64,000 nucleotides of DNA from a virus, in IMG/VR virus record IMGVR_UViG_3300035670_000028, positions 1 to 64,000 of that record; one strand, 5' to 3'. Below the pieces are notes generated by a model. That model was not told where the DNA came from. It worked only from the letters and a program-made list of their open reading frames with translations, and ran no database searches. Both the position numbers and the translations under genes were made by a program. Below, piece after piece: positions 7,237 through 64,000 of this stretch; positions within the stretch are counted from its first letter, which is position 1, and each line of letters opens with the position of its first letter.

Positions 7237-7292
7237 TGTTGGACAGAGTTTTACATGTGGCAGTCAGTGATGGAAGTATGAGTTTCGAACTA

Positions 7293-7299
7293 ATACTTA
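7293..7299 (+). promoter_or_regulatory. ATACTTA putative late promoter
   Basis: Upstream of tail sheath 1 and its TAAGGAG RBS. Confidence 0.6.
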
Positions 7300-7329
7300 G
7301 AAGAGAAACGTTCGTAAGGAGTTAACTCG

Positions 7330-10300: not shown

Positions 10301-10440
10301 TCTGCGACGATACAAATAACACAACTCTTGACGTAGAGGCCAATAGAATGAATGGAAGAATCGTTCTTGTGCCAACACGTGTTGTAGAGTTCATCTCCAT
10401 CGACTTCATCATCACAAATAGCGGCGTGTCGTTCGAGTGA
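7330..10440 (+). CDS. Tail sheath protein 1
   Basis: SPGFFEQEID..KGPAFVP N-terminus; PWFAPAGFNRG, INPI, FGQKT and RVNVRRLL sheath motifs. Confidence 0.93.
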   Translation: MPEQTFRSPGFFEQEIDLSARAGSTLGIPAGVIGTSKKGPAFVPVTIGTFTDFENRFGTLDPDRFGPYAVNEFLKHRNAVTFVRVLGAGANSTESDLNNTETMGIVKSAGFVLSASATDYSPGAVQFLCASQSLQSGELAGYPVFSDNRSFNERSTTLNDANLVRAVIFTTTGSRIEVLDYNQSYSAPAAGDSLADVGNGSIGEPYFKLVISSSQGASFSYDELNAGIRILTASLNPSSKHYIAKILNTNPDKFQEMQHLLYVDLPVENELATVKSVAILSGTSGTTTSGGDKTTPYRNLFGKFNTRYTTPKTTAIISQPFGTVEYDLFHFETISDGEATNEEYKVSIANIRKSLDPANAYGTFDVQIRRFTDVDTLPEILEVYPACNLNPKSENYIARKIGDKKVHFNFDTTSDTEQRLIVTGKYPNLSTRIRVVMNQAVENQTVPTDALPFGFRGIPVLKTSNSLTDDSLVVLSDRFGVSLGDSATSRLGGITAAVTPLSASILPPLPLRFKVTRGAVNDGTSTAISFIGDPGDNERADNRLYWGVKFERLPLEATVTNAVLNSNVSDVANPLVKGYAKFQGIAKLDTLVTGAAADEFNNNKFTLSRVALYNQLQGGQITDVTGTAREHMLEASYLRNGTPSATDYTINDAVLGANRITMATLVHSASSVFNRFQEFNKFTTMFYGGFDGVNLLDRDNRLLNDRASSSDTGGKAGDTYAGGLGLAGTAVAAMSGKGKDNNVVAAYQVATRLMTDEISSNVNVLAIPGIRDVLVTDFALDAVKKYGMAIYLMDVLNYDVDSNRLFDDSSAKPDVRETSEQFDARAINNNYGASYFPDVFLRDNVANRPVKVPASVAAMGALAFNDKIAYPWFAPAGFNRGALAEVSNVATRLNSEDRDVLYDSRINPIATFPTGGFVIFGQKTLQQAKSALDRVNVRRLLLEVKRLVAGVAKRLLFEQNDATTRAKFLSQVTPLLALIQSQSGIEQFQVVCDDTNNTTLDVEANRMNGRIVLVPTRVVEFISIDFIITNSGVSFE

Positions 10441-10483: not shown

Positions 10484-13400
10484 ATGGCTGAGCTGACATT
10501 CAAGAGTCCAGGCGTGAGCACAAGGGAGATCGATCTCAGTGGTCCTGCGAACGTTCTGCCACAGGGAACTCCTGCTGGTGTTATTGGCACCGCGCAGAAG
10601 GGCCGCGCATTCGTTCCGATCACAGTAGCAACATATCAGGACTTCGTCGCTGAGTTCGGTGCTACTGATGGTGAGAAGTTTGGACCACTTGCAATGTATG
10701 AGTGGTTCCAAAACGCCCGGGCAGGAACATATGTGAGGACCCTGGGTGTGGGTGATGGAACAAAGCGGCTAGTTTCAGGAATCAATGCTGGCAAAGTGAA
10801 CTACGCAGGATTCGTTGTAGGCGCTCAGCAGGTTCAAGTAAACGGTCAGATTGGCAGCAATTCGTACGCCGGCATCGATAAAGCAGGTTACAAGGGAGAG
10901 CTTGGAAGGACCTACTTCCTAGGCGCTTTCATGTCAGGAACTTCTGCCTCTCCCATTCTCTCAGACACCAATGTGCAGAAGACATCAGCAGCTGTTCCGA
11001 TTGTTCGCGGCGTTCTAATGGCTGCATCTGGCGTCATTGTCTCACTATCTTCATCCTACTCAACAAATAACGATCCAAGCGACATCTATAAGTCATCTGG
11101 CTCATTCACGTCCAACACTGTGATTGGCGACGCTGGAGCTCACCTAGGCACTGTCAATATCAACAGTGGCAGGTCTGACTTCGTTCTCTTTATGAACGGC
11201 CTCGTTCCCACGGCCCAGTTCTCCAACGTTATAACAGCATCTTTCGATCCCGCCTCCGCTCAGTACTTCCCGAAGGTTCTCAACACTGATCCTTATAGAC
11301 TTGAGTCCGCGGGACACTACCTGTACACAAGCTGGGATGTACATCCATCCTACGCAGTTGTTACCTCGTCGGGCGTTCAGACAGGAACTCCTGCAGGAAC
11401 AGGTCTGGTTGAGGCAGCATTCCTTCTCACGGGAACACAGACATACAACAGCGGTGCCCTCACACTGCCCAATTACGAAGGCTTCGAGTCAAGGTACGCT
11501 ACCGCATTCTCACCCTTCGTAGTTTCTCAGAAGTTTGGTGGCAAGCCTCAGAATCTCTTTAGACTACACTCACTTGATGACGGTTCCTCCGGAAACAGCC
11601 AGTTCAAGATCACAATCGAGAACATCGCTGCCTCCAGAAATGAGAACAGCCCCTACGGTACCTTCGACCTTGTAATTCGGTCCTTTGGCGACACGGATGA
11701 GGATAAGGTCGCGCTGGAGACGTTCCGAGCCCTCTCTCTCGATCCCAACTCCGATCGTTACATCGCACGTGTGGTGGGCGACCAGCACATCTACTACGAC
11801 TTCGATCAGCGGAGAGGCGCTCAGAAGCTTCGCGTCGAGGGGTCCTACCCGAACTCCTCCAAGTACGTGAGAGTGGAAGTGGCGTCCGATGTTGAGAGGC
11901 AGATAATTGACGCGTCAGCGCTTCCAGTCGGATTCCGCGGACCACACTTCCTCCTCACATCCGGAACAAACGCGTCGGGCGCAGCAGCACTCCACGGCTA
12001 TGTGACAGGAACGCTGGATCACGGAGTCGATGTCGCAGACCTTCAGGCCGCGCAGGTCGCACCAATCCCATACCGACTCAACATCGCGAAGGGAACAGGC
12101 CTCAGCAAGAAGGTCAATGCTTCCCTCACGTGGGGCGTTCAGTTTGAGGTTCAGGACAATCTCGCTGATCCGAACGGCACTGTGGGTCCGGACGCATCCC
12201 GTGCATCCTACACCAAGTACTTCCCGATGTACCACACCAACTTCCGCAATGTGATGCTCGGAGACACTGTGGGCCTCGCTGACGACGGTGGCATGGTCCT
12301 TGACTCAGATAAGTTCCAGAACAACCTCTTCTCTCTGGAGAACGTTCAGATTGCGACGGGGTCCACTGATAAGCCCGATGAGAAGGCGTGGGATATTGCC
12401 TCCTACCGAAGGAACGGAGTGAAGCTCACAGCACTCACTGCCTCTGATGGACGCACATTCGACGCAAACAACACGCGCTTCCTCGACCCTATCAAGGACT
12501 TCGACCACGTTCCCTCGAGGAAGTACCTCAAGTTCTCCTTCTTCATGCAGGGAGGATTCGACGGTGTCAACATCTTCGATCGCCAGAAGTCCAAGCTCAC
12601 TGATATCGCGGTTCGCCGTGAGATCGACAATATCGCGCAGGGCGGAATTGAGGGACCCACAGTCAACGCCTACAGGAAGGCGATCGATGTTATGTCCGAG
12701 AAGTCCGACGTCGACATTCAGCTCCTCGCCATCCCAGGAATTCGACACTACAGCGTGATGGACTACGCGGTCGACGCTGTGGAGAGCCGCTTCGACGCCC
12801 TCCTCCTGATGGACGTCGAGGAGCGCGATCAGTTCAACGAGCCCATGACAGGCTCCTCCGTGCAGATGCCCTCCGTCTTCAACACGGTCAACCGCATGGC
12901 GGACCGCAACATGGACACCTCCTTCGCTGCGGCGTACTACCCCGACGTCGTGATGCAGGATCCAGGCACCCTCACAAACATTGTGGTTCCTCCCACGGTC
13001 CCCGTCCTCGGCGCCTTCGCGCTGAACGACACAGTCGCCTACCCCTGGTTCGCTCCCGCTGGCTTCACACGCGGCGCGATGCCACGGGTCCTAGAGACTC
13101 AGGTGAAGCTCAACAGGGCGAACCTCGATGACCTCTACGAGGTGGACATCAACCCGCTCACATCCTTCGCCGACTCCAACGGTGTCGTGGTGTTCGGACA
13201 GAAGACCCTCCTCGCTGCACAGAGCGCGCTTGATCGGGTCAACGTTCGCCGCCTCCTCATTGAGATCCGCCGGCGCGTGCGCCGCGTCGCGAACACGATC
13301 CTCTTCGAGCCTAATCGTGAGTCCACCCTCTCCCGCTTCTCCGCTGCCGTGACACCCATCATGCAGCAGATTCAGGCGCAGCGCGGCCTCGATCGGTACA

Positions 13401-13543
13401 AGGTGCAGATCGACACCACAACGACCACCGCGGCCGACGTGGAGAACAACACGATCCGCGGCAAGATCTACCTCCAGCCCACGCGGTCCCTGGAGTTCGT
13501 CTCCCTCGACTTCGTGGTCACAAATCAGGGCGCGACAGTTTGA
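10484..13543 (+). CDS. Tail sheath protein 2
   Basis: SPGVSTREID; PWFAPAGFTRG, FGQKT and RVNVRRLL motifs; preceded by ATACCTA at 10444. Confidence 0.93.
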   Translation: MAELTFKSPGVSTREIDLSGPANVLPQGTPAGVIGTAQKGRAFVPITVATYQDFVAEFGATDGEKFGPLAMYEWFQNARAGTYVRTLGVGDGTKRLVSGINAGKVNYAGFVVGAQQVQVNGQIGSNSYAGIDKAGYKGELGRTYFLGAFMSGTSASPILSDTNVQKTSAAVPIVRGVLMAASGVIVSLSSSYSTNNDPSDIYKSSGSFTSNTVIGDAGAHLGTVNINSGRSDFVLFMNGLVPTAQFSNVITASFDPASAQYFPKVLNTDPYRLESAGHYLYTSWDVHPSYAVVTSSGVQTGTPAGTGLVEAAFLLTGTQTYNSGALTLPNYEGFESRYATAFSPFVVSQKFGGKPQNLFRLHSLDDGSSGNSQFKITIENIAASRNENSPYGTFDLVIRSFGDTDEDKVALETFRALSLDPNSDRYIARVVGDQHIYYDFDQRRGAQKLRVEGSYPNSSKYVRVEVASDVERQIIDASALPVGFRGPHFLLTSGTNASGAAALHGYVTGTLDHGVDVADLQAAQVAPIPYRLNIAKGTGLSKKVNASLTWGVQFEVQDNLADPNGTVGPDASRASYTKYFPMYHTNFRNVMLGDTVGLADDGGMVLDSDKFQNNLFSLENVQIATGSTDKPDEKAWDIASYRRNGVKLTALTASDGRTFDANNTRFLDPIKDFDHVPSRKYLKFSFFMQGGFDGVNIFDRQKSKLTDIAVRREIDNIAQGGIEGPTVNAYRKAIDVMSEKSDVDIQLLAIPGIRHYSVMDYAVDAVESRFDALLLMDVEERDQFNEPMTGSSVQMPSVFNTVNRMADRNMDTSFAAAYYPDVVMQDPGTLTNIVVPPTVPVLGAFALNDTVAYPWFAPAGFTRGAMPRVLETQVKLNRANLDDLYEVDINPLTSFADSNGVVVFGQKTLLAAQSALDRVNVRRLLIEIRRRVRRVANTILFEPNRESTLSRFSAAVTPIMQQIQAQRGLDRYKVQIDTTTTTAADVENNTIRGKIYLQPTRSLEFVSLDFVVTNQGATV

Positions 13544-35628: not shown

Positions 35629-36810
35629 ATGGCAAAGAACACAGAGCAAGACAGCTTCACAGATGATCTGATCAAGTCACTCAATAAGTCGCACGGATCC
35701 CGTGTGGCCTATAACCTCGCATTCGATGAGTCACCCACACACGTCAAGCGGTGGATCAGCACGGGCTCCAAGCAGCTCGACTACATCATCTCTAACCGCC
35801 GCAACGGTGGCCTTCCTGAGGGACGGATCGTCGAGATCTTCGGCCCACCCTCTATCGGTAAGTCACACATCGCCATTCAGATCGCGCGCTCCACTCAGAA
35901 GATGGGTGGAATTGTGGTCTACATCGACACGGAGAATGCCACCTCAGTCGAGAACCTTGGACTCCTCGGGGTCGACGTCAAGAAGCGCTTCGTCTATGTT
36001 GACACCCACTGCACAGAGGAGGTCCTCTCGATCGCGGAGGAGACGATCCTCAAGGCGAAGGCGATGGACAAGGACGTGCCTGTCACCATCATCTGGGACT
36101 CAGTGGCTGCAACATCACCCAAGGCTGAGCTCACAGGTGACTACGACAAGGACTCGATCGGCCTGCAGGCCCGTGCAATCTCCAAGGGCATGCGCAAGAT
36201 CACAGGCGTCATCGCCAACCAGAACGTGCTTCTCGTCTGCCTGAACCAGATTCGCACGAAGGTGGGTGTCATGTACGGCGATCCCACCACAACACCTGGC
36301 GGTATGGCGATCCCCTTCCACGCATCAGTCCGAATCAAGCTCGGTGCAGGTCAACACATCCTCAACAAGGACAAGGAGGTCATTGGCATCAATGTCTCCG
36401 CAAAGACTGTCAAGAACAAGGTGACAGCGCCCTTCAGGACCGCTGACTTTGAGATTCACTTTGGCGTCGGAATCAAGGAGCACGAGCAGCTGTTCGACAT
36501 CCTTCGGCGCCACGGTCCTGAGACCGTTAACGGCCGCACGATCGAGATAGGTGGAACCGGCGCATGGAAGACACTGACGGTGCACAACGCATCGACAGGT
36601 GAGATCATTGTCGACAAGAAGTTCTACAAGGCTGAGTTCGACAAGATTCTCTCGGACCCTGAGTACGCTGACTACCTCGATGACCTCCTCGAGGCGGCGA
36701 TGTCCAAGAAGAAGGCGACTGAGGCTGCCGACGTGGATCCGGAGTCGTACGAGGAAGTGCGTGCCATTGCGATGGATGTAGATGTGTCAGACGTCTCTCC
36801 TGAGGACTGA
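35629..36810 (+). CDS. recA: RecA/UvsX recombinase
   Basis: ISTGS..LD, GRIVEIFGPPSIGKS, YIDTE, WDSVAA, NQIR, TTPGG. Confidence 0.93.
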   Translation: MAKNTEQDSFTDDLIKSLNKSHGSRVAYNLAFDESPTHVKRWISTGSKQLDYIISNRRNGGLPEGRIVEIFGPPSIGKSHIAIQIARSTQKMGGIVVYIDTENATSVENLGLLGVDVKKRFVYVDTHCTEEVLSIAEETILKAKAMDKDVPVTIIWDSVAATSPKAELTGDYDKDSIGLQARAISKGMRKITGVIANQNVLLVCLNQIRTKVGVMYGDPTTTPGGMAIPFHASVRIKLGAGQHILNKDKEVIGINVSAKTVKNKVTAPFRTADFEIHFGVGIKEHEQLFDILRRHGPETVNGRTIEIGGTGAWKTLTVHNASTGEIIVDKKFYKAEFDKILSDPEYADYLDDLLEAAMSKKKATEAADVDPESYEEVRAIAMDVDVSDVSPED

Positions 36811-37769
36811 TGCGGCACCCGATCATCATAATTGACTCGCTGAACGTTTTCACTCGACATTTTATTGCAAATCCCACTATGAGCCGCCAGGGTCAGCAGA
36901 TCGGCGGATTTGTGGGTTTCCTCAAGGGCCTCAAGCTTCTAACGGAGAAGCTCAGGCCCAAGAGGGTGATAGTGGTGTGGGAGGGTGGTGGATCCGCTCG
37001 TCGAAGGGCAATCTTTCCTGACTACAAGCAGGGAAGCAGGCCACAGAAGCTTAACCGCTACTACGATGATGACATTCCCGACACGTACGAGAACAGGGAC
37101 TTTCAGATCAAGATGACGATTGAGGCACTGAAGCACGTTCCAGTGCAGCAGATCTACGTCTCGGACTGCGAGGCCGACGATGTGATAGGCTACATGTGCC
37201 GTCACCTCTTTCCAGAGGATCCGCTTGTTGTCGTGTCGTCTGACAAGGACCTGTACCAGCTCATCGATGACAGGGTCACGCAGTGGTCGCCTGGCCAGAA
37301 GAAGTTCATCACACCTGAGGAAGTGCACGAAAAGTTTGGTGTGTGGCCCGTGAACATGTGTGTCGTGCGAAGCTTCGTGGGAGATCCCTCTGACAGCATT
37401 CCAGGGGTCGCAGGAGCTGGCTTCAAGACAATGACCAAGAGATTCCCATTGTTGTCCGAGAAATCATCCCTGATGATCCAGGATGTCCTAGACGAGGCTT
37501 CCAGACTGTCAGCGACAAAGTCCGGCGCTAAAGTTCAGGTCCTTAAAAACATCCTTGAGGAGCAGGATATAGTGATGCGTAACTGGAAGCTCATGCACCT
37601 GGACATTTCGAACCTCTCAGGTGACCAGATTAAGAGAATAAACGACTCCGTGTCGAACTACTCGCCGAAGAAGAACAAGTTGGAGCTTATGCGCCTATTT
37701 GTAAGGCAGGGAATCCAGGACTTTGACGTGGACTCCTTCTTCATGTCTCTGAGCGCTTCAATAACTTGA
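36810..37769 (+). CDS. 5'-3' exonuclease (PolI N-terminal/T4 RNase H-like)
   Basis: IIDSLN, YKQGR-like, EADDVI, SSDKDL.QL, GDPSDSIPGV. Confidence 0.9.
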   Translation: MRHPIIIIDSLNVFTRHFIANPTMSRQGQQIGGFVGFLKGLKLLTEKLRPKRVIVVWEGGGSARRRAIFPDYKQGSRPQKLNRYYDDDIPDTYENRDFQIKMTIEALKHVPVQQIYVSDCEADDVIGYMCRHLFPEDPLVVVSSDKDLYQLIDDRVTQWSPGQKKFITPEEVHEKFGVWPVNMCVVRSFVGDPSDSIPGVAGAGFKTMTKRFPLLSEKSSLMIQDVLDEASRLSATKSGAKVQVLKNILEEQDIVMRNWKLMHLDISNLSGDQIKRINDSVSNYSPKKNKLELMRLFVRQGIQDFDVDSFFMSLSASIT

Positions 37770-43151: not shown

Positions 43152-43187
43152 GTCACATGGGTCCTAATCCTCCGCAGGCTGCGTGTT

Positions 43188-43194
43188 ATACTTA
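43188..43194 (+). promoter_or_regulatory. ATACTTA putative late promoter
   Basis: Marks the switch from the replication block to the fibre genes. Confidence 0.55.
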
Positions 43195-43222
43195 GACCCA
43201 GAGATTTGACCCACCGTGAACT

Positions 43223-44863: not shown

Positions 44864-44972
44864 AAAATGTTTGTGATCGAGGTGACCTAAAGCTTATTTC
44901 ATTCTTCCATCGTGATATTTAGTGTTGGACTCGAACGAAGACTTGTAGACGCTTTAACGGGAGAACACTAAG

Positions 44973-48685: not shown

Positions 48686-51235
48686 ATGATCAAGTCGCCC
48701 GCATCGATACTGTTCGACATCAACGGCATTGCGACAGCAGTGTCCGCCTCGGACCAGCCAACGTCAGGCGCCCTGGGGCATGTGATGGCAGGCTTCGACG
48801 AGACGAAGTCGGTCAGGTACGCCTCATTCATCGGTGATGCCCTCAAGGTCGATGGCCTCGTGAATATCGCCTCGAGCGATTCGTTCTCGAGCGCAATCGT
48901 GGGCAGCAGGTACAACCAGCTGGAGATCGCCTACGATTCCACCGATCCTGACAGCATCGATAAGATAACTGTCACGAAATCGAACGGCGGCGATGCCATC
49001 AACTCAGGTGGCCAGGCTGTTTTCAGTACCTCAGTGGCCACGAACGGCGGGATCAAGGCAGTAACTGATGCCACCGTATCCTACCGCCCGCACGCTGAGG
49101 TGTACGCTGCCTTCACCTGCATATTCACGGCAGGGGTTGCTGATAGCTACCAGCGGATCGGCATCTACGATAGCAACAACGGATTCTTCATCGGATACGA
49201 GGGCACCTCGTTCGGAGTAACGATCCGCAAGGCAGGCTCCGATACAACCACCGCCCGCGCCTCCTTCAACCTGGATACTCTCACCGGCGCCTCGGACTCG
49301 AAGTACACCCGCGCTGGAGTTCCTGAAACCCTGGATCCCACGAAGGATAACCTCTACCGGATCAGGTACGGGTGGCTGGGCGCAGCACCGATCGTATTCG
49401 AGGTGCTATCACCGGATGGCGGCTGGGTGCCATTCCACATCATCAGGCACCCGAACACCAACGCTGCAACCACGATCAACGATCCTGACCTCCCGATCAC
49501 CCTGGATGCGCAGAAAACTGCAGGCGCCACCAACATCACAATGTCGACCGCCTGCTGGGCTGCTGGCACCACGAGCGATCTTGACCGAGTAACTGCCACG
49601 ATATCTGATGATACTCTGGCGAAGCTGACCAGATCTGTTATAGCCGGCCAAACAACCGGCGGCGGTGGCGGATACGTGAACGTGAAGGTTACGCCGAGCG
49701 GTGCCCTCACGGTAGAGATCGATGATGGCGGCGGCAGCATCACCGTGGATGGCGTGATCACTGGATCAGGTGATGTTGGCATCCTCAGGCAGGCGGCCAC
49801 CCGCGATCTCTTCATCACCGGCTCAGTGGGTATCACGGAGGCACACGGGGTATTCAGCGGCACCCTCCCATCCACCGGAATGCCGGCAGGGTTCTCCGAT
49901 GGCACCCTCATGCAGGCTGCACGGGTGTACGATCTGAACACCTCCACGGGATCGGCGAACGAGGAGCACGTGCTCGGTGTGAGCCTGCGCTCGAGCAGCG
50001 TTTCAGGATCCCAGGAGCTGGGCACGATCTCGAACCCGCTCATCACCTCACCCGGCCCATACGGGAAAACGGTTTTCGGTGAGGAGAGGGTTGCCCTCCC
50101 ATTCGCCCTCGCTGATCTTATCAACAAGTACGAGATCACTCCCACCGAGTACTCCACGCTAACGAGCTCGGTTGGCACTCCCACGATCCTGCACGTTCCG
50201 GATGAATCTGCCATCCGGCTAACTGTGGATGGCACATCCGGGAGCTTCGGCAGGCTCCGCACGAACACCTTCTACCGGTACCAATCCGGCAAGGGGCAGA
50301 ACATCAAGATGACCCTGTACCACGGTGATACAGGCGAATCTGATCAGGTGAGGCGGTGGGGCTACTTCGATGAGGGTGATGGCCTCTTCTTCCAGCTATC
50401 GGGCTCGAACCTGGGCGTAGTGGAGAGGAAATCCACCACTGGATCCCCCACCGAGCTGTTCTACTCCCAATCTGCCTGGAACGTGGATCCCCTAGATGGC
50501 ACCGGCCCGAGCGGGATCACCCTCGATATCACGAAGAGCCAGATATACGAGATCAGGTTCCAGTGGCTGGGCGTAGGATTCGTTGATTATTACATCAACG
50601 GATATCGGATCCACAATATCCAGCACGCGAACCTCGTTTCCGGCCCCTACATGAAAACAGGCCAGCTTCCACTATCCTGGGAGGTGGAGAACAACCTCTC
50701 ATCATCAGCAGGGAGCATGACAACAGTGTGCTCATCCGTTCTTTCTGAGAACGGAGAGCCACCCCCAGAGTTCAGCTTCGCCGCCTTCAACTCCACCCCT
50801 GTGAGCGTAACCACAACCGAGGTTCCGGTCCTGAGCATCCGCCCGAAGGCAACCTACAATGGGATAACGAACAGGATCATCACCCTCCCGAAGAAATCCG
50901 TGGTTTCCACTGAGGGCTCGCGCATATCCTACCGGATCCTGTACAATGCAACCCTCACCGGCGCCTCATGGGCATCCGTGGCATCCACATCCGGAACCGA
51001 GTTCGATGTATCTGCCTCTGCATTCACGGGCGGCGAAACACTGTTCTACGGGTTCCTTCCCAACAGCAATGATGCCGAGGGCGCTGAGCTGGAGAAGTAC
51101 TTCAGCATCCTGGCCAGGAAGCTGCGCCAGAACGCATTCGCCACAGGTGTTGATACCCTCACGATCGTGGCGAGGAACGAGGCTGCAGGTTCAACCTCAG
51201 TGCGCGCAGCACTGGTATTCACAGAGGTGCGGTGA
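48686..51235 (+). CDS. Large beta-rich virion protein with two related domains (fibre/receptor-binding-like)
   Basis: Duplicated R.G..D...G.F, .N.D.L.G and Y.I...WLG motifs. Confidence 0.65.
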   Translation: MIKSPASILFDINGIATAVSASDQPTSGALGHVMAGFDETKSVRYASFIGDALKVDGLVNIASSDSFSSAIVGSRYNQLEIAYDSTDPDSIDKITVTKSNGGDAINSGGQAVFSTSVATNGGIKAVTDATVSYRPHAEVYAAFTCIFTAGVADSYQRIGIYDSNNGFFIGYEGTSFGVTIRKAGSDTTTARASFNLDTLTGASDSKYTRAGVPETLDPTKDNLYRIRYGWLGAAPIVFEVLSPDGGWVPFHIIRHPNTNAATTINDPDLPITLDAQKTAGATNITMSTACWAAGTTSDLDRVTATISDDTLAKLTRSVIAGQTTGGGGGYVNVKVTPSGALTVEIDDGGGSITVDGVITGSGDVGILRQAATRDLFITGSVGITEAHGVFSGTLPSTGMPAGFSDGTLMQAARVYDLNTSTGSANEEHVLGVSLRSSSVSGSQELGTISNPLITSPGPYGKTVFGEERVALPFALADLINKYEITPTEYSTLTSSVGTPTILHVPDESAIRLTVDGTSGSFGRLRTNTFYRYQSGKGQNIKMTLYHGDTGESDQVRRWGYFDEGDGLFFQLSGSNLGVVERKSTTGSPTELFYSQSAWNVDPLDGTGPSGITLDITKSQIYEIRFQWLGVGFVDYYINGYRIHNIQHANLVSGPYMKTGQLPLSWEVENNLSSSAGSMTTVCSSVLSENGEPPPEFSFAAFNSTPVSVTTTEVPVLSIRPKATYNGITNRIITLPKKSVVSTEGSRISYRILYNATLTGASWASVASTSGTEFDVSASAFTGGETLFYGFLPNSNDAEGAELEKYFSILARKLRQNAFATGVDTLTIVARNEAAGSTSVRAALVFTEVR

Positions 51236-51648
51236 TGGCCACATTCGATACAGATAGGATAACCACAACCCGCCTCGATTCCTGGGCCGAGATCAGGAAG
51301 TACCTCGATGGCACGATCGCCTCACTCGCCTTCCAGTTCGATGATCGCGGGGATTTCTACACGATCATCACCGAGCCGTACGCAGGGATCACCCTGCAGT
51401 ACTCGATCAAGAAGGATGATGGGCCCGAGCAGAGCGATTTCGAGAACAACTACAAGGATCTGGCACCCCGCCGAACTGGAACCTTCGATGGGAACAGTAA
51501 TGCAACTCTGGTTACCAGCAATGGGCAGAGCGTGCAGATCGTTAACTCGCTCCGCCTCGAGCAGCTCCTATCCCAGGTGCTGCAGGAGCTGAAGAGGATG
51601 AATTCTCAGCTGCAGATAATTACAGATGAGGAAAACGATCTACTATAG
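51232..51648 (+). CDS. Hypothetical protein
   Basis: GTGA overlap; C-terminal coiled coil. Confidence 0.65.
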   Translation: MMATFDTDRITTTRLDSWAEIRKYLDGTIASLAFQFDDRGDFYTIITEPYAGITLQYSIKKDDGPEQSDFENNYKDLAPRRTGTFDGNSNATLVTSNGQSVQIVNSLRLEQLLSQVLQELKRMNSQLQIITDEENDLL

Positions 51649-51666
51649 AGCACTGGAGATGAACCG

Positions 51667-52242
51667 ATGAACTACATTCAGGATGGAACCGGCAAGGGCT
51701 ATCTCGCCGAGGTAACAGAGCACAATCAGCTTTCGATCGCAGGAATCGCAGATACGAGCTATGATGCTGCCTCCCAAACGGGGGAGAGCTTCAACGTGAA
51801 CACGGAGTTCGTTTCGATCACAGTTGGCACAGAAACCCCCCTGTTCTACTTCAAGAACAATGAATCGAATCCAGCAGTGATCGTGGGTTGGTTCATCGGA
51901 ATTGGGCTAGCCGGCGGCGCTGCCACCGAGAACGCGATCCTTCGAACGTATGCGAATCCCACTTCAGTTTCCGGTGGAGTTAGCCTAACAACCGTGAACA
52001 GAACGATCGGATCAGGCAGAACCTTCTCCTTCGATGCGAAGAAGCAGGATAGCGGAACTCCACTCACCGGCACACTGCCATCAACTCCGGTCCTGTACCA
52101 AACGCAAACGGCATCATCCCGCGTGTTCGGAAACGTGTACCTCACCGTTCCAAAGGGCAACTCGCTGATCGTTACGTGCCAGCTGAACGGTGCACAAACA
52201 GCGAACATTTACACAGGCTTCACCGGCTTCGTGGCAGGATGA
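51667..52242 (+). CDS. Virion-protein-like paralog 1
   Basis: N-terminal IQDGTGKGYLAEVTEHNQL. Confidence 0.65.
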   Translation: MNYIQDGTGKGYLAEVTEHNQLSIAGIADTSYDAASQTGESFNVNTEFVSITVGTETPLFYFKNNESNPAVIVGWFIGIGLAGGAATENAILRTYANPTSVSGGVSLTTVNRTIGSGRTFSFDAKKQDSGTPLTGTLPSTPVLYQTQTASSRVFGNVYLTVPKGNSLIVTCQLNGAQTANIYTGFTGFVAG

Positions 52243-52258
52243 GGAGAAGGAGCACACC

Positions 52259-52846
52259 ATGGCAAGAATAGAGGATGGCAGGGGCAAGGGATTCCAGGTA
52301 GCTGTTGATTCCACCAACCGGTTGGAGGTTCACGCTGCCACTGTTGATGAGGAGAGAGTTGCAACCATCGATGGTGAGGCATGGCAGTTTGGCAGTGCCA
52401 CGGTTGCCTTCACGGCAGCAACAGCATCCGCGATCCTGTTCGTGAAGAACACCGATACAAGAGATATGGTTATCGATCGCCTCCGCCTGCACCTAGGCAC
52501 GGTCACGGGAGGCACCGGAGATTGGACACTGGGAATCGTTAGGAATCCCACCGCGGGAACCCTAGTTTCTGCCGGCACTGTGATCACGCCCACGAACATC
52601 AACCACGGATCATCGAAGGAGCCAACCGGCACGTTCCTCCGCGGAGTGCAGGGCTCAACCCTCACTGATGGCACCACCTCATCATTCCCGATCAAGTCAT
52701 CGGGAGATGGAATCATCATCTTCCCGTTCGGCAGGATCCTGCCAACAGGTGCCTCGATCGGGATCAGCGTGACCCCACCAACAGGCACCACCGCAGCGAA
52801 CGCGGTGGCAGTTCTGAGGGGCTACTACCCAGCTGCAGATGTGTGA
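52259..52846 (+). CDS. Virion-protein-like paralog 2
   Basis: IEDGRGKGFQVAVDSTNRL; AAGGAG RBS. Confidence 0.65.
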   Translation: MARIEDGRGKGFQVAVDSTNRLEVHAATVDEERVATIDGEAWQFGSATVAFTAATASAILFVKNTDTRDMVIDRLRLHLGTVTGGTGDWTLGIVRNPTAGTLVSAGTVITPTNINHGSSKEPTGTFLRGVQGSTLTDGTTSSFPIKSSGDGIIIFPFGRILPTGASIGISVTPPTGTTAANAVAVLRGYYPAADV

Positions 52847-52860
52847 GGGCGTGAGGGCAG

Positions 52861-53490
52861 ATGATTAAGAACCTCATAGTAGATGGAGAGGGCTCCGGGA
52901 GGATCGCCGCTGTAACCCCCCAGAATGCCCTCAAGGTCCTGCCCCTGCCCACCACATCCCGCGGATTCACGGCGCGCGAGCTCGCCAGCCTGCGCATATA
53001 CCGAGAGTTCCTCAGCAACACAGCCGGCTCCACCGAGATGGCAGTGGATGGCTCGGTCACGAACGTGGAGTTCAGAATTGTTGCTGCCAGCACCCAAACG
53101 AAGTGGATCAAGCAGCTCAGGTTCACCCTCGAGGATGCGAACATGGAGCTCACCACATCAGATTTCCGTAGGTTCGGAGCAGCAACTGCAACGAACACGC
53201 CCCTCACCAATGGGATCCAGATCGAGGCAGTGCAGGGAGGAATACTCACCAATATTGCTGCCGAGCCGATCACCGTTCTCGGAGACTTCCTCAACTACGC
53301 GGATGCCTACCTCAACTTCTCGAACGCGATCTCCACGAACGAGGATTTCGTGCTCTTCGACTTCGACTTCATGACTCCAGTTGTGCTCGTGCCAGGAAGC
53401 AACGATTACATAGCAGTTCGCATAAGGGACAACCTCACCGCAGTGAACACGTTCAGGTGCCTCGGAAGGGGGATCGCGGAGATTCTATGA
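52861..53490 (+). CDS. Virion-protein-like paralog 3
   Basis: IVDGEGSGRIAAVTPQNAL. Confidence 0.65.
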   Translation: MIKNLIVDGEGSGRIAAVTPQNALKVLPLPTTSRGFTARELASLRIYREFLSNTAGSTEMAVDGSVTNVEFRIVAASTQTKWIKQLRFTLEDANMELTTSDFRRFGAATATNTPLTNGIQIEAVQGGILTNIAAEPITVLGDFLNYADAYLNFSNAISTNEDFVLFDFDFMTPVVLVPGSNDYIAVRIRDNLTAVNTFRCLGRGIAEIL

Positions 53491-53930
53491 TAACAGGAAC
53501 GATCGTAAGCGGCCCCAGGGCAGCAGATGGCTCACAGGTGGTCACCACCACACCCTACGCGTACTCCAACGAGAGGACGAAGTTCTCCGGGCACTTCTAC
53601 ACCTGCCCACCTGGAACATCACAGCACTCAACAGCCACACCGGGAGTGATCCGGCTCCAGGGAGGAACCTACTGGGCCCGGGGCGCCACAGCGGGAGACA
53701 GGGTTACATTCGAGGTGGTGGATGCCGACAATGTCCTGGGCGGAGGGGCGGGAGCTGTTGTCAGCCAGTACGTGAGCGAGCTTCCTGTTGCCCCCTGGGA
53801 CCACCACATCGAGGTGTCATCGCCGAACGCCGGCACGGTTCCCGCTGGCCTCTACCTGCGGATCACGTACGTGAACACCGGCGCGAGTGACGTCCAGTTC
53901 GGTGTGACTTATCGCTGGTATCAGCAGTGA
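53487..53930 (+). CDS. Hypothetical protein
   Basis: ATGA overlap; beta-rich. Confidence 0.6.
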   Translation: MITGTIVSGPRAADGSQVVTTTPYAYSNERTKFSGHFYTCPPGTSQHSTATPGVIRLQGGTYWARGATAGDRVTFEVVDADNVLGGGAGAVVSQYVSELPVAPWDHHIEVSSPNAGTVPAGLYLRITYVNTGASDVQFGVTYRWYQQ

Positions 53931-53938
53931 GGCCTGCT

Positions 53939-53966
53939 TGAACATTCACTGCCCCGCGTCTATACA
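53939..53966 (+). promoter_or_regulatory. Sigma70-like promoter (TGAACA-N16-TATACA), apparently leaderless
   Basis: ATG at 53973 lies 6 nt after the -10 box. Confidence 0.5.
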
Positions 53967-53972
53967 TGGGGC

Positions 53973-54434
53973 ATGGACCAACCCAGCAGTTGGACTCCGC
54001 CTCGCTCACCGCACGGCCTCCTCCAGGAGGACCTGTGGCCCAATGAGTGGCGGATCCTCGTTGCATGCCTCATGCTCAACCTCACCACCCGCAAGCAGGT
54101 CGACGGTGTGATCCACGAGTTCTTTCGGCGGTGGCCCGATCCGGGATCCCTGGCGGCCGCAGATTTGAACGAGCTCGAGGGGCTGATCAAACCCCTAGGG
54201 ATGTGGCGAAAGCGGTCACAGACGCTGCTCAGATTCAACCGGGAGTATATGGCAGGAGGCTGGTCGACCGCCCGGGACCTCCACGGCTGCGGAAAGTACG
54301 CCGATGACTGCTGGCGGATATTCTGCCGCGGTGACTGGCGCGCCGTGCAGCCCCAGGACCACATGCTCAACAAGTACCACGATCACCTCGCCAGGACCCT
54401 TGGCGAGACCAATAACAACGCAACAATGGAGTAG
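53973..54434 (+). CDS. MBD4-like HhH mismatch DNA glycosylase
   Basis: WTPPRSP..L.QE, LN.T, KPLG, LHG.GKY..D..RIFC...W..V.P.DH.LNKYHD match the MBD4 glycosylase domain; catalytic Asp retained. Confidence 0.9.
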   Translation: MDQPSSWTPPRSPHGLLQEDLWPNEWRILVACLMLNLTTRKQVDGVIHEFFRRWPDPGSLAAADLNELEGLIKPLGMWRKRSQTLLRFNREYMAGGWSTARDLHGCGKYADDCWRIFCRGDWRAVQPQDHMLNKYHDHLARTLGETNNNATME

Positions 54435-54438
54435 ACGA

Positions 54439-54909
54439 ATGATTGCATTTCTCAAGTGGCTCAACAAGTACGAGATGCCTGTTCACTTTCTTGTGATGAT
54501 CTCTGTTTTCTATGGCATCTCTCTAGGCATCACAGCTGCAACAGCTCCCTCAGCCGTGGAGGCGCTCGTTGTCTCCTTCACTGCAGGAATGCTGCTTGTC
54601 GTGATCGGCGCTCTGTCGTTTAAGGTCGCGACCCTTTTCACCGACGCGATCAAGAATGCCGTCGCCCGAGCCACGCTGGAGCAGATGAGGGAGAGCCTTC
54701 CTCCGGCGGAGCTGCTCACAAAGGAGAAGATTGTGGACTACACAAGCAGCAATGTGATGATTGTCAAGAACGTGCCCGACGAGCTGAAGGAGGCTGTGGC
54801 AAACCTCAACGCGGCAGCCTCTGCTGATGCAACCGAGGTCGCACCGATCCCGCCCGTTGAGAAGAAGAAGCGCGCGCCCCGTTCCAAGTCCATCAAGAAG
54901 GAGGGCTGA
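54439..54909 (+). CDS. Membrane protein (two TM helices, basic tail)
   Basis: Two hydrophobic stretches at the N-terminus. Confidence 0.65.
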   Translation: MIAFLKWLNKYEMPVHFLVMISVFYGISLGITAATAPSAVEALVVSFTAGMLLVVIGALSFKVATLFTDAIKNAVARATLEQMRESLPPAELLTKEKIVDYTSSNVMIVKNVPDELKEAVANLNAAASADATEVAPIPPVEKKKRAPRSKSIKKEG

Positions 54910-54910
54910 G

Positions 54911-55717
54911 GTGCCCGAAGGCAGCGAAGTCAAGCTGTTCGGAGAGTCCCTCGCGAAGGTTGTGTCTGGAAAGGACATTACTTCTGTTGATGTGATCTCC
55001 GGGCGGTACGCGAAGAGCGATGTTGAGGGTCTGGACCTGCTTAAGGCTCGACTTCCGACGAAGGTGGTGGGAATTGGAGTGCACGGCAAGTTCCTGTACT
55101 GGATTGTCACCAACGACGTCTTCATCTACAACACGCTGGGCATGACTGGCAGCTGGTCGACCCAGGAGACGAAGCACTCGCGCGTGGTGTTCCAGCTGAG
55201 TGACGGCGTGAGCGTCTACTTCAACGATCAGAGGAACTTTGGCACGCTCAAGATGGTTCCAGGACGAGACGAGCTCGTGAAGAAGCTGAAGTCGCTGGGC
55301 CCTGATATGCTCTCTGAGGCCGTTTCGGACGCGAGGTTCACAGAGAGCCTCATGAAGCGCCCAGAGTGGACGCTGGCAGAGGCAGTGATGGACCAGAGCC
55401 TGATCTCCGGCGTGGGCAACTACGTCAAGGCGGAGTCCCTCTACAGAGCACAGCTCTCTCCGCACAGGCAGGTGCAGTCGCTCTCGCCCACTGACATGTC
55501 CCGACTGCGCCAGAGCATTCAGCTCGTCCTCAACGAGGCGTACAGGAGGGGAGGTGCCTCGATTCAGACCTACCGTGACTTCGAGGGCAATGAGGGCGAA
55601 TACACCCAGAGGTTCCTCGTCTATAATAGGGACCAAGATCCAAACGGCAATAGTGTCGTGCGTGAGAAGACAGCAGACGGCAGGACCACGCACTGGGTTC
55701 CTGCAGTTCAAAAGTGA
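54911..55717 (+). CDS. Fpg/Nei-family DNA glycosylase (zincless finger type)
   Basis: N-terminal PEGSEV, HGKF, LGMTG, DQRNFG, LGPD, H2TH SGVGNY; C-terminal GRTTHWVPAVQ without Cys4. Confidence 0.9.
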   Translation: MPEGSEVKLFGESLAKVVSGKDITSVDVISGRYAKSDVEGLDLLKARLPTKVVGIGVHGKFLYWIVTNDVFIYNTLGMTGSWSTQETKHSRVVFQLSDGVSVYFNDQRNFGTLKMVPGRDELVKKLKSLGPDMLSEAVSDARFTESLMKRPEWTLAEAVMDQSLISGVGNYVKAESLYRAQLSPHRQVQSLSPTDMSRLRQSIQLVLNEAYRRGGASIQTYRDFEGNEGEYTQRFLVYNRDQDPNGNSVVREKTADGRTTHWVPAVQK

Positions 55718-61567: not shown

Positions 61568-61870
61568 ATGCGGTCAGACTGTTTAACAGACTTACCGAAG
61601 ACAGGTGACCTCGTTCGCGGCACTCGAGAGTTTGGGTCCTGCATCGAGGCCCAATTGTGGAACGAGAACTTTGTGATGTCGTACCCAGACGAGCCTTGGG
61701 ACACTGCGACTATTGCAGTGTATATTGAGCCGGTCTCCCGAGAGGAGCTTGGTGAGATTAGTCCAAGGGTTCCTCACAGTGGCCTTGGTCCGTTCCACCG
61801 GATCTTCTACAAGAATCGGGTGTGGCTTGTGTACGGCGATGATTCACTGGAAGCTGTGAAAGGAGAGTGA
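61568..61870 (+). CDS. Small GDLV-motif (KOW/SH3-like) protein
   Basis: PKTGDLVRG. Confidence 0.55.
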   Translation: MRSDCLTDLPKTGDLVRGTREFGSCIEAQLWNENFVMSYPDEPWDTATIAVYIEPVSREELGEISPRVPHSGLGPFHRIFYKNRVWLVYGDDSLEAVKGE

Positions 61871-62217
61871 GCGAGATGAGCGAGATTGAGAGTGCTGAGG
61901 CACCGGTGGAGAAGAGAATTACACAGGCCCTGATCGATAATGCCTTCAGCTGCCTCGATGGCCACGGGCGGCTAACCTATGCTAGGGATGAGTGCTGCAC
62001 GATCCAGCAGGTTCTGCGGGAGGCCCACGGTGTGCACCTCTCCCTGAACGAGTGCCGGCGCTTCTGGGAGTGGAGATCGGGGCTGTGGGATGCTTCCTTC
62101 CTCACGCTGGGAGGGGCGGATGAACCGGGCACCCGGAAGGAGATCCTCGAGTTCTTCACCGAGTGGCTGGATGAGCTGGATATCTGGGAGTGGAACACTG
62201 CGGAAGAGGAGGATTGA
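61867..62217 (+). CDS. Hypothetical protein
   Basis: AAGGAG RBS; GTGA overlap. Confidence 0.6.
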   Translation: MSEMSEIESAEAPVEKRITQALIDNAFSCLDGHGRLTYARDECCTIQQVLREAHGVHLSLNECRRFWEWRSGLWDASFLTLGGADEPGTRKEILEFFTEWLDELDIWEWNTAEEED

Positions 62218-62218
62218 G

Positions 62219-62677
62219 ATGATCAAGAAGAGGAAGGGCTGGTTCAGGCACATTAAGCCGAGCTCCCCGGTGTGCCCGAGGAAGCCGGAGAGGATGCTGA
62301 AGCGCGAGAGGCTAACGATCCTGTATGAACACTGCGGGAGCAGGATGAACCTATCAGAGATTCCCCTCCCCGAGGGGAAGGGCCTGGCTGATATCCAGCT
62401 GAGCGCTAGCGGGGATGAGGATGGTGATATCACCCTCGAGTTCTACACCCGGGAGGAGTACGAGGAGGAGAACCCCCACTACGAGCGCGAGATGAAGCAC
62501 TACAAGGCAGTGTACGCCAAGTACGAGCAGCTGAGGGATGAGTTCAAGGCCGAGCTAGCTGAGTGGAAGGCGTGGAATGCCGAGCAGGATGCTGCTGATG
62601 TGAAGGAGCGCCTCGAGGCTGCAGAGAGGCTGCTCCGCCAGCACGGCCGGCTCCCTGGAGGCCCGAGTGTGGGCTGA
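62219..62677 (+). CDS. Hypothetical coiled-coil protein
   Basis: GAGGAGG RBS before MIKKRK. Confidence 0.6.
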   Translation: MIKKRKGWFRHIKPSSPVCPRKPERMLKRERLTILYEHCGSRMNLSEIPLPEGKGLADIQLSASGDEDGDITLEFYTREEYEEENPHYEREMKHYKAVYAKYEQLRDEFKAELAEWKAWNAEQDAADVKERLEAAERLLRQHGRLPGGPSVG

Positions 62678-62969
62678 TCCTGATCGGGCCATCCTAACCT
62701 ACCCACTCTTTGCGGGAGGCACCCTGGAGTTCGGGTGGGCCCGCTCCGGTGGCGGCATGAGCGTGGGCACGAATCCCCTCATGGCCCGCGTGCTAGTGCC
62801 ACCCTCTGGCGGCGAGTATCCCTCCGGCTGGTTCGTGGTGCAGGGCAAGCGCTCGCTCATCAAGGTGAAGGCCGAGTTCGATACCTACGGTGGTTTCATC
62901 CCAGATTGGCTCCGCGCAGATATGTTCGAGCACCACTACAACCTCCTCAGGATAGGCACCAGTGCGTGA
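62667..62969 (+). CDS. Hypothetical protein
   Basis: GGAGG RBS before the GTG start. Confidence 0.5.
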   Translation: MWADPDRAILTYPLFAGGTLEFGWARSGGGMSVGTNPLMARVLVPPSGGEYPSGWFVVQGKRSLIKVKAEFDTYGGFIPDWLRADMFEHHYNLLRIGTSA

Positions 62970-63051
62970 TCTGGCTCGCGAGCTGAGGAGGGGAGATCTC
63001 GTGCGGATCACGCGGTGCATGGTTAAGTTGCAGCGTGGGGATTCAACCTAA
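62962..63051 (+). pseudogene. Truncated copy of the GDLV gene start
   Basis: VRDLARELRRGDLVRITR... stops after 29 codons; matches the start of 63422..63712. Confidence 0.5.
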
Positions 63052-63057
63052 TACTTA
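63051..63057 (+). promoter_or_regulatory. ATACTTA putative late promoter, apparently leaderless
   Basis: Ends 5 nt before the ATG at 63063; no RBS. Confidence 0.55.
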
Positions 63058-63062
63058 TCACC

Positions 63063-63332
63063 ATGCGAATCACACTCAACGAGCTCCGCCTGATCATCAG
63101 GGAGGCGCTGGCTCAGCCCATGGAGTTCAAGCAGGCCGAGGAGCTCTACTCTGAACTGATCATGGGTGCCATGAGGGATAACCGCGGGAATGTTTCCGCC
63201 ATGCAGGCCGCCATGCGTGCCATCCCCGATCAGGTGCTCAAGCTCACCGGGTGGAGTGTGGAGGAGATCCAGGCAGGAACCGAGCGGGAAACCCGCGAGA
63301 GGATCGCGGCCATGAAGCAGGGCCGGCCCTGA
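63063..63332 (+). CDS. Leader-bearing small protein
   Basis: MRITLNELRLIIREAL. Confidence 0.7.
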   Translation: MRITLNELRLIIREALAQPMEFKQAEELYSELIMGAMRDNRGNVSAMQAAMRAIPDQVLKLTGWSVEEIQAGTERETRERIAAMKQGRP

Positions 63333-63357
63333 ACATTCCCGCCCACCCGGCTACAAT
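63330..63357 (+). promoter_or_regulatory. Sigma70-like promoter (TGAACA-N16-TACAAT)
   Basis: Matches the recurrent early-type motif. Confidence 0.5.
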
Positions 63358-63421
63358 TAGGCCAGGATGAGCAAGATTATAATTCCAGAGGATTACTCGG
63401 CCCCAACCCGGATGAGCACCA

Positions 63422-63712
63422 GTGCGTGATCTGCAGGCAGGAGATCTCGTGCGGATCACCCGGCAGCCAACTGATGATCCCCGCGCTGGGTGCTCCCACT
63501 TCTGGTGCGAGGAGGCTGGGCTATCCCTCCCCATCCCCTGGGGCACCGGCTGCCTGGTGGTTGATGTTGATGGCAGGAGCTCGCTGGGTAACGAGCTCAT
63601 TCACTTCATACATGAGGAGCGCGTGTTCGCGATCACCAAGTACCAGGTTGACTACTCGCACCCAGCGGGCCGAGTGGTGAGGCACCTGTGGTGCGAGCTG
63701 GTGGGAGGCTGA
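63422..63712 (+). CDS. Small GDLV-motif protein
   Basis: LQAGDLVRIT..G.GCLVV. Confidence 0.55.
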   Translation: MRDLQAGDLVRITRQPTDDPRAGCSHFWCEEAGLSLPIPWGTGCLVVDVDGRSSLGNELIHFIHEERVFAITKYQVDYSHPAGRVVRHLWCELVGG

Positions 63713-63715
63713 GAG

Positions 63716-63952
63716 GTGAAAGAATTCAGCAGCACCATCAGGCCCGGCGATCTCGTTCGCCCGAACCACTCGCGCGAGCACAATAAGAACAATGTGGGGA
63801 TCGTTCTCGAGATCTGCCAGCATCCACTTGCTGAGAGCGAGTTCATGGCACTCGTAATGTGGCCAGCGAATCCACCGGTGGAGCCAGCCTGGTTCCGGGC
63901 AGGTGGGCTGGAGAGGGTATCCCGTGCAAATGGGATGGGAGATGGGGTATAG
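63716..63952 (+). CDS. Small GDLV-motif protein
   Basis: IRPGDLVRP..VGIVLEI..VMW..LERVS. Confidence 0.6.
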   Translation: MKEFSSTIRPGDLVRPNHSREHNKNNVGIVLEICQHPLAESEFMALVMWPANPPVEPAWFRAGGLERVSRANGMGDGV

Positions 63953-63953
63953 T
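63925..63953 (+). promoter_or_regulatory. Sigma70-like promoter (TGCAAA-N17-TATAGT)
   Basis: ATG at 63960 lies 6 nt after the -10 box; that ORF runs off the window end. Confidence 0.45.
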
Positions 63954-64000
63954 GGTACCATGGAGGAAGTGATGGCTGAGCCCAAGTGGAAGAAGTGCAG

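Follow-up and report, generated by a model that had tools for sequence, protein, structure and literature searches.

Why one part of a viral genome should be nearly devoid of a 3-bp word that abounds on either side of it is the question raised by tract A, at positions 48974-53283 of a 64,000-nt window, the first 64 kb of the 147,186-bp IMG/VR viral contig IMGVR_UViG_3300035670_000028 (CheckV, 44% complete). With two tail-sheath paralogues, T4-type baseplate and tail-tube proteins, DnaE, RecA, and ribonucleotide reductase, this contig belongs to a myovirus, and its + strand carries nearly all of the genes. The missing word is GAC or GTC (hereafter GWC, where W is A or T), and tract A is one of five GWC-poor tracts, designated A to E (Table 1). 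The reading that we consider probable on balance is that the flexible, hypervariable gene clusters of these large myoviruses are kept free of GWC by continuing purifying selection on a word of double-stranded DNA, and that tract A is a recombinant piece of such a cluster.

An earlier note, made from the sequence letters of the window, had put the content of tract A at about 16 GAC or GTC in 4.3 kb. The count is exactly 16, where about 150 would be expected. Expressed per kb, the sites number 6, 3, 0, and 6, against the 34-36 predicted by base composition, while the flanks, rightly described as rich in the word, have 35-57 per kb. The longest void runs from 50828 to 52090 (1262 nt) and leaves no site in 50829-52089, which covers the empty interval 50831-52089 that had been pointed out, and two sub-stretches of the tract are leakier (49295-49627 and 52502-53056). 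Three of the 16 survivors are forced by the encoded protein at Met-Thr junctions (50311 and 50719) and at a Trp-Thr junction (52525), in agreement with the same note. Its placement of the left edge within gene 48686-51235 was also borne out, since the edge lies 288 nt into this gene, whose first 288 nt are GWC-rich (21 sites) and whose remainder is depleted; the right edge is intragenic too, within gene 52861-53490.

This depletion is not a by-product of codon usage. Asp is encoded by GAT in 93% of cases in tract A versus 40% in backbone genes, and Val by GTC in 6% versus 36%, figures that match the earlier impression of an Asp nearly always written GAT and a Val rarely written GTC. The loss of GAC and GTC runs against the local trend, because the remaining C-ending codons are commoner in tract A than elsewhere (Phe TTC, 100%; Ile ATC, 76%; Asn AAC, 77%). 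When synonymous codons were shuffled within the tract, keeping the proteins and the tract's own codon usage, sites spanning a codon boundary (marked by a slash) remained far below expectation, with 5 observed versus 57.2 +/- 5.3 for xxG/WCx and 1 versus 13.9 +/- 2.9 for xGW/Cxx, or 6 versus about 71 for both classes together. The depletion thus survives a codon-shuffled control and exceeds what codon usage predicts. The depleted word is GWC itself and none of the longer sites GGWCC, CGWCG, or GANTC, which had been envisaged as possible explanations, because all eight GWC-containing 4-mers are reduced to 0.01-0.08 of their backbone frequency and the next lowest 3-mer stands at 0.59; for GWC, the ratio of island to backbone is 0.04. 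An extended recognition site was considered and rejected, as the C that often follows the survivors matches the local base context, and so was a general avoidance of palindromes, as 4-bp palindromes are not avoided overall and the signal is therefore specific.

The pattern extends to the whole contig. The five tracts together hold 21 GWC sites versus 565 expected, and pooling over 5089 codons gave 19 versus 301 for in-frame sites, 1 versus 46 +/- 5 for xGW/Cxx, and 16 versus 149 +/- 8 for xxG/WCx. Depleted DNA makes up about 12% of the contig (147 kb), and in relatives that are complete or nearly so its share is about 4-5%, so the whole-genome extent of usual restriction-site avoidance was not observed. 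The GC content of the tracts is higher than that of the backbone, not lower.

Nucleotide searches of the phage collection with tracts A and B returned no match, nor did a viral scan with a tract B protein, and the relatives recovered via the 849-aa virion structural protein of tract A, its C-terminal half, or DnaE were not GWC-depleted. Two IMG/VR records, G001 and G002, were reached through a protein conserved in small-gene arrays. The first 12 kb of G001 (73 kb) have 7-8 GWC sites. In G002, a complete genome of 297,894 bp that has terminal repeats and a DnaE only 41-42% identical to that of the contig, there is a single GWC-free island at 56.3-69.7 kb, the density being normal elsewhere. A third genome, G003 (278 kb, 84% complete), shows depletion at both of its contig ends and nowhere else; joined, these ends form one island of about 14 kb. 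Closer to the contig is L047, with a core 85-88% identical, in which the regions equivalent to tracts D and E are GWC-poor, while L052 has no GWC in its first 2996 nt, occupied by an array of small MKPGDLV-type genes, and then about 20 sites per 500 nt. Among 62 loci with the neighbouring AAA ATPase, the purge was found only in the subclade loci from G001-G004. Two loci of IMG/VR relatives that have the closest ATPase homologues, at 60% identity (L078 and L079; GC, 52-53%), are unpurged, with a GWC ratio of about 1.6 or more, above the expectation from composition, and L050/L051, a relative with a 79%-identical core protein, is unpurged as well. The depletion is thus confined to flexible clusters in otherwise normal genomes and persists across deep divergence.

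Found in these clusters are small PGDLV genes, genes for MRIT..IIRE-leader proteins, a gene with a cREC domain, and, in the contig, a virion-protein module. Four island genes of the contig have homologues inside the G002 island, and island gene content is common to phages whose core proteins are only 30-60% identical. Island pieces shared by G001 and G002 are 94% identical and their backbones 64-74%; likewise, tract D is 96% identical to its L047 counterpart between flanks of 78-88%. Island pieces are thus exchanged between phages, with identities of 94-96% in islands versus 64-88% in backbones or flanks. Among the closely related genomes G001, G003, and G004, divergence is about the same in islands as in backbones, and the islands have stayed purged. 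The GC content of islands follows the resident genome (42-43% in G001/G002 and 57% in the contig). The purged state is neither a gene-family nor a whole-lineage trait, because PGDLV-type genes lying outside the tracts have 33-52 GWC per kb, which led us to reject a property of this gene family, and because the cREC gene is GWC-rich in L052. This tract D gene, 96% identical at the DNA level in L047, encodes a 161-aa protein with a cREC_REC domain (PF20274, E=2e-20) and is a candidate counter-signalling gene. An N6-adenine methyltransferase of the RsrI/MboIIA/CcrM class encoded by the contig was also considered as a key to the phenomenon and discarded, as it has no homologue in G002.

A patch of normal density in the G002 island (63.2-65.0 kb) corresponds to an IS200/IS605-like insertion sequence (IS), recognized by eye from sequence motifs only, with TnpA-like (146 aa) and TnpB-like (393 aa) genes, the latter holding 26 GWC sites. 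This element is an un-purged newcomer. The G001 island contains on the minus strand a GIY-YIG homing endonuclease-like gene, also identified by eye from motifs, that unlike the G002 IS is itself GWC-free.

In addition to GWC, a second word is purged from the islands of G001-G004 (L056, L062-L063, L140, L153, and L154). The observed/expected ratio of GpC is 0.25 in these islands versus 0.97 in the backbone, with a partial reduction of CpG (0.60 versus 0.91). Gly GGC falls from 24% to 3%, and G before a codon starting with C from 19% to 6%. Alanine makes up 1.93% of the residues of island proteins versus 6.83% in the backbone, a loss that goes with the GpC purge since all Ala codons begin with GC. 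No GpC depletion was seen in the contig or in L052.

Several processes could leave such a footprint, beginning with an artefact (a chimeric assembly, miscalled bases at a modified motif, or an ordinary bias in codons or dinucleotides), which might be feared of a metagenomic assembly that CheckV rates as 44% complete. A contig from another Joint Genome Institute (JGI) sample (L042) corresponds to window positions 48869-53546 at 99.98% identity and spans both edges of tract A, and one from a third sample (L044) corresponds to 53436-55395 at 100%. Moreover, the gene order from the ribonucleotide reductase gene to the 209-aa gene at the right edge recurs in a Logan contig of 16.9 kb, and the 849-aa protein has a 97%-identical counterpart, flanked by the same genes, in an ENA assembly. 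Both junctions being reproduced at 99.98-100% identity in other samples, the chimera that the earlier note had named as a possible refutation is ruled out. The pattern also recurs in at least six other assemblies of diverged phages, protein sequences are preserved with the forced sites kept, and the depletion persists under codon-preserving shuffles, so that the artefact model can be regarded as excluded. Mutational erosion, by methylation and deamination or by targeted hypermutation at GWC in hypervariable clusters, deserves more attention, since GAC to GAT, GTC to GTT, and xxG to xxA are all transitions at the C or G of the site, the clusters are hypervariable, and a very high local mutation rate could look like selection. 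Two-fold purine-ending codons preceding ACN or TCN in the tracts end in A in 46 of 48 cases versus 10% elsewhere. At four-fold sites before ACN or TCN, G drops from 33% to 2%, and C replaces it as much as A does, both being increased. Of 110 GGN and CGN codons before a codon starting with C, none ends in A or T, versus 39% elsewhere, and Ser following a G-ending codon is encoded by AGY instead of TCN in 55 of 61 cases versus 21% otherwise. The GGN/CGN and Ser shifts argue against deamination, because C-to-T or G-to-A changes at the site cannot make them, and sites of the xGW/Cxx class, which no such change removes synonymously, have been cleared as well, down to the 1 versus 13.9 expected in tract A, which encodes a conserved virion protein. 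Amino-acid choice is affected as well, with 4 Met/Trp-Thr dipeptides versus 11.7 expected (P=0.009), whereas the Met/Trp-Ala and Met/Trp-Val controls are as expected. A pair of PolX-like orthologues illustrates the range of changes, the contig copy having 17 GWC sites and the L047 copy 4, with differences that include GAC to GAT, CGT/CGA-C to CGG-C, GGA-C to GGG-C, TCG to AGC, and Met-Thr to Met-Val. The purge thus uses every available synonymous route and even amino-acid choice. Furthermore, GC content is raised rather than lowered in the tracts, the IS inside the G002 island shows no decay, and no C5-methyltransferase gene (PF00145) was found in the contig or in five relatives including a complete genome, a search of phage genomes that leaves room for a host enzyme. 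The cause is selection against the site and not C-to-T decay, and mutational erosion appears quite unlikely. The earlier description of the replacements as C-to-T on one strand or the other holds for a part of the changes and fails for the Ser, four-fold G-to-C, and GGN/CGN classes. Of the two origins that the note had offered, methylation followed by deamination is not supported, given the sites lost where no synonymous transition exists and the missing C5-methyltransferase gene, whereas selection against a 3-bp GWC target fits the codon and dipeptide patterns.

Selection could also act on RNA, if a host toxin or a phage endoribonuclease cut mRNA at GAC/GUC and transcripts had to resist it, as ACA-poor RNAs do under MazF. 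A gene-by-gene locality would then be natural, the trait would travel with a gene on transfer, an IS insertion would be tolerated, and MazF-linked trinucleotide avoidance is reported in RNA phages (PMC12151602). DNA and RNA effects are moreover hard to tell apart where nearly all genes lie on one strand. The set formed by GAC and GTC is closed under reverse complement, a property that we estimate to be shared by about 3% of singly degenerate RNA 3-mer motifs, and the second purged word, GpC, is self-complementary too. GAC and GUC are lost equally from the sense strand (24 GAC and 24 GTC survivors across three genomes). Intergenic DNA inside tract B, about 1 kb in total, has 1 GWC site, tract A begins within a gene whose 5' part keeps its 21 sites, and tract D adjoins a GWC-rich gene across a 15-nt gap with no promoter between. 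The depletion is strand-symmetric, covers non-coding DNA, and acts on a word of double-stranded DNA, so that an RNA-level cause seems highly unlikely. A related phage lineage that is GWC-free throughout, and from which the tracts would be recent recombinational imports, would account for the two intragenic edges of tract A, for gene families found in both purged and unpurged states, for the identity of tract D with L047 as compared with its flanks, for a GC content at third codon positions (GC3) above that of the backbone, and for contigs from other samples breaking near tract edges. No fully depleted contig was obtained in any search made, and every depleted segment recovered adjoins normal backbone, including those of the 298-kb complete and the 278-kb 84%-complete genomes. 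Island GC tracks the resident genome, and island genes are common to phages of 30-60% core identity. Thus, the part of the earlier note that postulated a GWC-free source lineage did not stand, the islands sitting in GWC-normal genomes, while the imported look of tract A did, and a donor of this kind is unlikely. The same degree of doubt attaches to a self-inflicted switch, in which a phage factor, possibly packaged in the virion, would shut off the host by blocking or damaging DNA at G(W)C, leaving only site-free phage genes expressible until the block is lifted or repaired. The trait goes with a clade of phages whose genomes have 42-59% GC, and not with any identifiable host, the DNA-repair set of the backbone is unusually large, and the leader of several proteins looks like a capsid-targeting signal. 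A factor of this kind was not identified, the leader proteins match no Pfam family, late- or structural-looking genes are among those purged, and the close relatives L050/L051 and L078/L079 are unpurged. The RNA-level, mutational, and whole-genome-donor models are all rated lower than continuing selection on flexible clusters.

Tract A comprises residues 97-849 of the 849-aa virion structural protein, three downstream genes, and the first two-thirds of a fourth (Table 1). The module belongs to the flexible genome, because none of its genes is conserved in the complete relative G002. Its GC3 is shifted, in line with the higher GC3 that all tracts share relative to the backbone, and several contigs from other samples stop within 100-300 nt of tract edges, which suggests a heterogeneous population at these points. 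The intragenic edges, the shifted GC3, and the assemblies breaking at the edges indicate that tract A probably entered by recombination, as a piece of purged, island-type DNA.

If flexible clusters are indeed kept free of the word, the agent would act on DNA at a palindromic target of 2-3 bp, as a restriction-modification-type endonuclease that cuts frequently or nicks, or as a DNA-modifying enzyme, and clusters would be exposed to it whereas the backbone would not. Two accounts of this difference have about equal weight, each being possible although doubtful on its own. The cluster may be a unit of horizontal exchange that stays in one piece if the genome carrying it is cut, recombination then rescuing it; a cluster or small gene could realistically lose all of its sites, whereas a 300-kb backbone with about 10,000 sites would gain nothing from losing a few. 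Exchange of this kind would explain why edges are intragenic, why clusters are dispersed, and why the IS is un-purged, and it agrees with the transfer of island pieces seen between phages. Alternatively, clusters may be the first-exposed DNA, leading or anti-defence, which would agree with how strong the selection is and with the one island found in each of G002 and G003. A precedent exists in site avoidance restricted to the leading, first-injected hypervariable region of Murciavirus/Autographiviridae phages facing a Type I system (PMC12455610). Leading-region traits seen here are the small hypervariable genes and the cREC_REC gene, but tract A encodes a virion structural protein; contiguity of a leading region is seen in the one island each of G002 and G003, against at least five dispersed tracts in the contig.

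Several points weigh against selection on flexible clusters as proposed here. First exposure sits poorly with the dispersion of the contig clusters over at least five places, with the late-type genes that they include (the virion protein, and leader proteins sharing the ATAYTTA motif of a sheath gene), and with an IS of 26 sites tolerated inside an island. As for exchange, selection acting at transfer only may be too weak to strip alanine from proteins, and G001/G003/G004 keep the purge through 13-16% divergence in a vertical-looking manner. We know of no GWC- or GpC-cutting enzyme in bacteria or their phages, and none specific for either word was identified in this analysis. G002 encodes no PF00145 or PF01555 methyltransferase, which leaves the escape of the backbone from the agent unexplained. 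More tentatively still, and as a possibility short of even odds, large aquatic myoviruses would face a DNA-targeting activity of 3-bp specificity (GWC), or 2-bp specificity (GpC) in sister phages, with accessory genes carried as site-free, alanine-poor cassettes that function or survive where ordinary DNA is cut or modified.

Comparison with known systems brings out what is particular to these tracts. As in restriction-site avoidance, a palindromic DNA word is synonymously removed on both strands and unavoidable sites are left. Known sites are 4-8 bp long and usually avoided over the whole genome, whereas the word is here 3 bp (2 bp in relatives), the depletion is about 25-fold and limited to flexible clusters, amino-acid composition is altered, and to our knowledge a 3-bp or 2-bp word of this kind has no cognate enzyme. 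DNA enzymes of 2-4 bp specificity do exist in large viruses, as chlorovirus restriction-modification systems have 2-4 bp sites, with for example GpC methylation by M.CviPI; chloroviruses protect themselves by whole-genome methylation, and no homologous enzyme was found in this analysis. The hyperplastic regions and internal-protein loci of T4-like phages, where small fast-evolving genes are exchanged between conserved modules and some products have a leader ending in I-x-E, resemble the present clusters in their small genes, horizontal exchange, and I-x-E leader, although we know of no motif-free composition in these regions. Avoidance in a leading region is also known for the first-step-transfer DNA of phage T5 and EcoRI. 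There too, only a part of the genome is site-free, and this part is hypervariable and rich in small and anti-defence genes. In leading-region systems (Murciavirus/Autographiviridae, PMC12455610; T5), the protected part is one defined genome end and the site is long, in contrast to the dispersed clusters of the contig, structural and late-looking genes included. CpG methylation and deamination likewise depletes a short self-complementary word and produces many transitions; unlike CpG decay, the present process has removed non-decayable site classes, switched Ser families, and not lowered GC, and no C5-methyltransferase was found. Avoidance of ACA under the MazF endoribonuclease in RNA phages (PMC12151602) also concerns a trinucleotide and has a sequence-specific nuclease as its cause. 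The effect reported there is RNA-level, strand-specific, and modest, whereas the islands are strand-symmetric, involve two palindromic words, and are nearly complete. Literature searches on GWC methyltransferase motifs returned nothing relevant, and those on GWC motifs or trinucleotide avoidance in phages returned no description of this pattern. Motif avoidance is a known kind of signal, while the 3-bp or 2-bp word, the 25-fold depth, the restriction to islands, the conservation in a clade of phages of about 300 kb, and the effect on amino acids were not found described.

Since motif avoidance is the footprint of an enzyme that targets nucleic acids, a 3-bp word purged 25-fold, and this in at least seven assemblies of diverged phages, would imply a target shorter than that of any described bacterial or phage defence or counter-defence system. 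It would also mean that selection on a DNA word can act on the flexible gene pool of a virus apart from its core genome. This has a bearing on how accessory and anti-defence genes move between phages, site-free islands marking the members of the pool, and further cases can be looked for by simply scanning for k-mer voids.

Table 1. Positions of the tracts, genes, and motifs discussed. Positions are those of the window up to 64000 and of the whole contig beyond it, unless another genome is named.
Feature	Position	Strand	Remarks
Tract A	48974-53283		GWC-poor
GWC sites of tract A	49295, 49487, 49543, 49546, 49583, 49627, 50311, 50719, 50828, 52090, 52502, 52525, 52696, 52771, 52936, 53056
Deepest stretch of tract A	49628..52089		3 sites only: forced Met-Thr 50311 and 50719, GTC Val codon 50828
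849-aa virion structural protein gene	48686..51235	+	phrog_1645, E=1e-91
137-aa gene	51235..51648	+	No family assigned; 0 GWC sites; identical protein on independent contigs
191-aa gene	51667..52242	+	No family assigned; 1 GWC site
195-aa gene	52259..52846	+	No family assigned; 4 GWC sites including forced Trp-Thr 52525
209-aa gene	52861..53490	+	Holds right edge of tract A; sparse sites up to 53056, normal density from 53284
Tract B	61789-68944 (61789..64000 in window)		Array of small PGDLV-type genes and MRIT-leader genes; 1 GWC in window part
Tract C	73295-75375		GWC-poor
Tract D	138398-139927		GWC-poor
Tract E	145202 to contig end		GWC-poor
cREC_REC gene of tract D	138448-138933 (L010:8448-8933)
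N6-adenine methyltransferase gene	76669-77460
IS200/IS605-like element	G002 (L063) 63245-64832		Inside G002 island
GIY-YIG homing endonuclease-like gene	G001 (L056) 8365-9207	-	Inside G001 island
Tail-sheath paralogue genes	7330-10440, 10484-13543
DNA-repair genes	53973-54434, 54911-55717, 35629-36810, 36810-37769, 103815-105041, 126365-127312, 137854-138432
MRIT-leader genes	702, 16901, 61141, 63063, 65362, 121315
ATAYTTA motif regions	7237-7329, 43152-43222, 44864-44972, 62970-63062; G002 63100-63244
Tandem VK.GDLV genes	64380-65084		Four genes

Other features of the contig are worth recording. The two adjacent genes of about 1,000 aa that each end in a tail-sheath domain encode paralogous sheath proteins, both kept in G002. 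The DNA-repair set is unusually rich, with HhH-GPD and Fpg/Nei glycosylases, RecA, two FEN-type exonucleases, an ATP-dependent ligase, UvdE, and a PolX-like protein, and most of it is conserved in G002. An N-terminal leader, MRIT..QLR.IIRE, which ends in I-x-E, is common to otherwise unrelated proteins; it is similar to the signal for capsid targeting and cleavage in T4 internal proteins and is present also in G001, G002, and L052, and the cargo proteins that bear it have no Pfam match. A promoter-like motif, ATAYTTA, often in the form ATAYTTATCACC, is found immediately upstream of start codons, both those of structural genes, the tail-sheath gene among them, and those of the island genes for leader proteins. 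This motif is conserved between the contig and G002. Finally, the four tandem VK.GDLV genes encode products of 55-64 aa, each starting with this motif (VKPGELA in one) and three of the four ending in SE[GA][GR], and their 14-nt overlaps suggest recent tandem duplication followed by rapid divergence.

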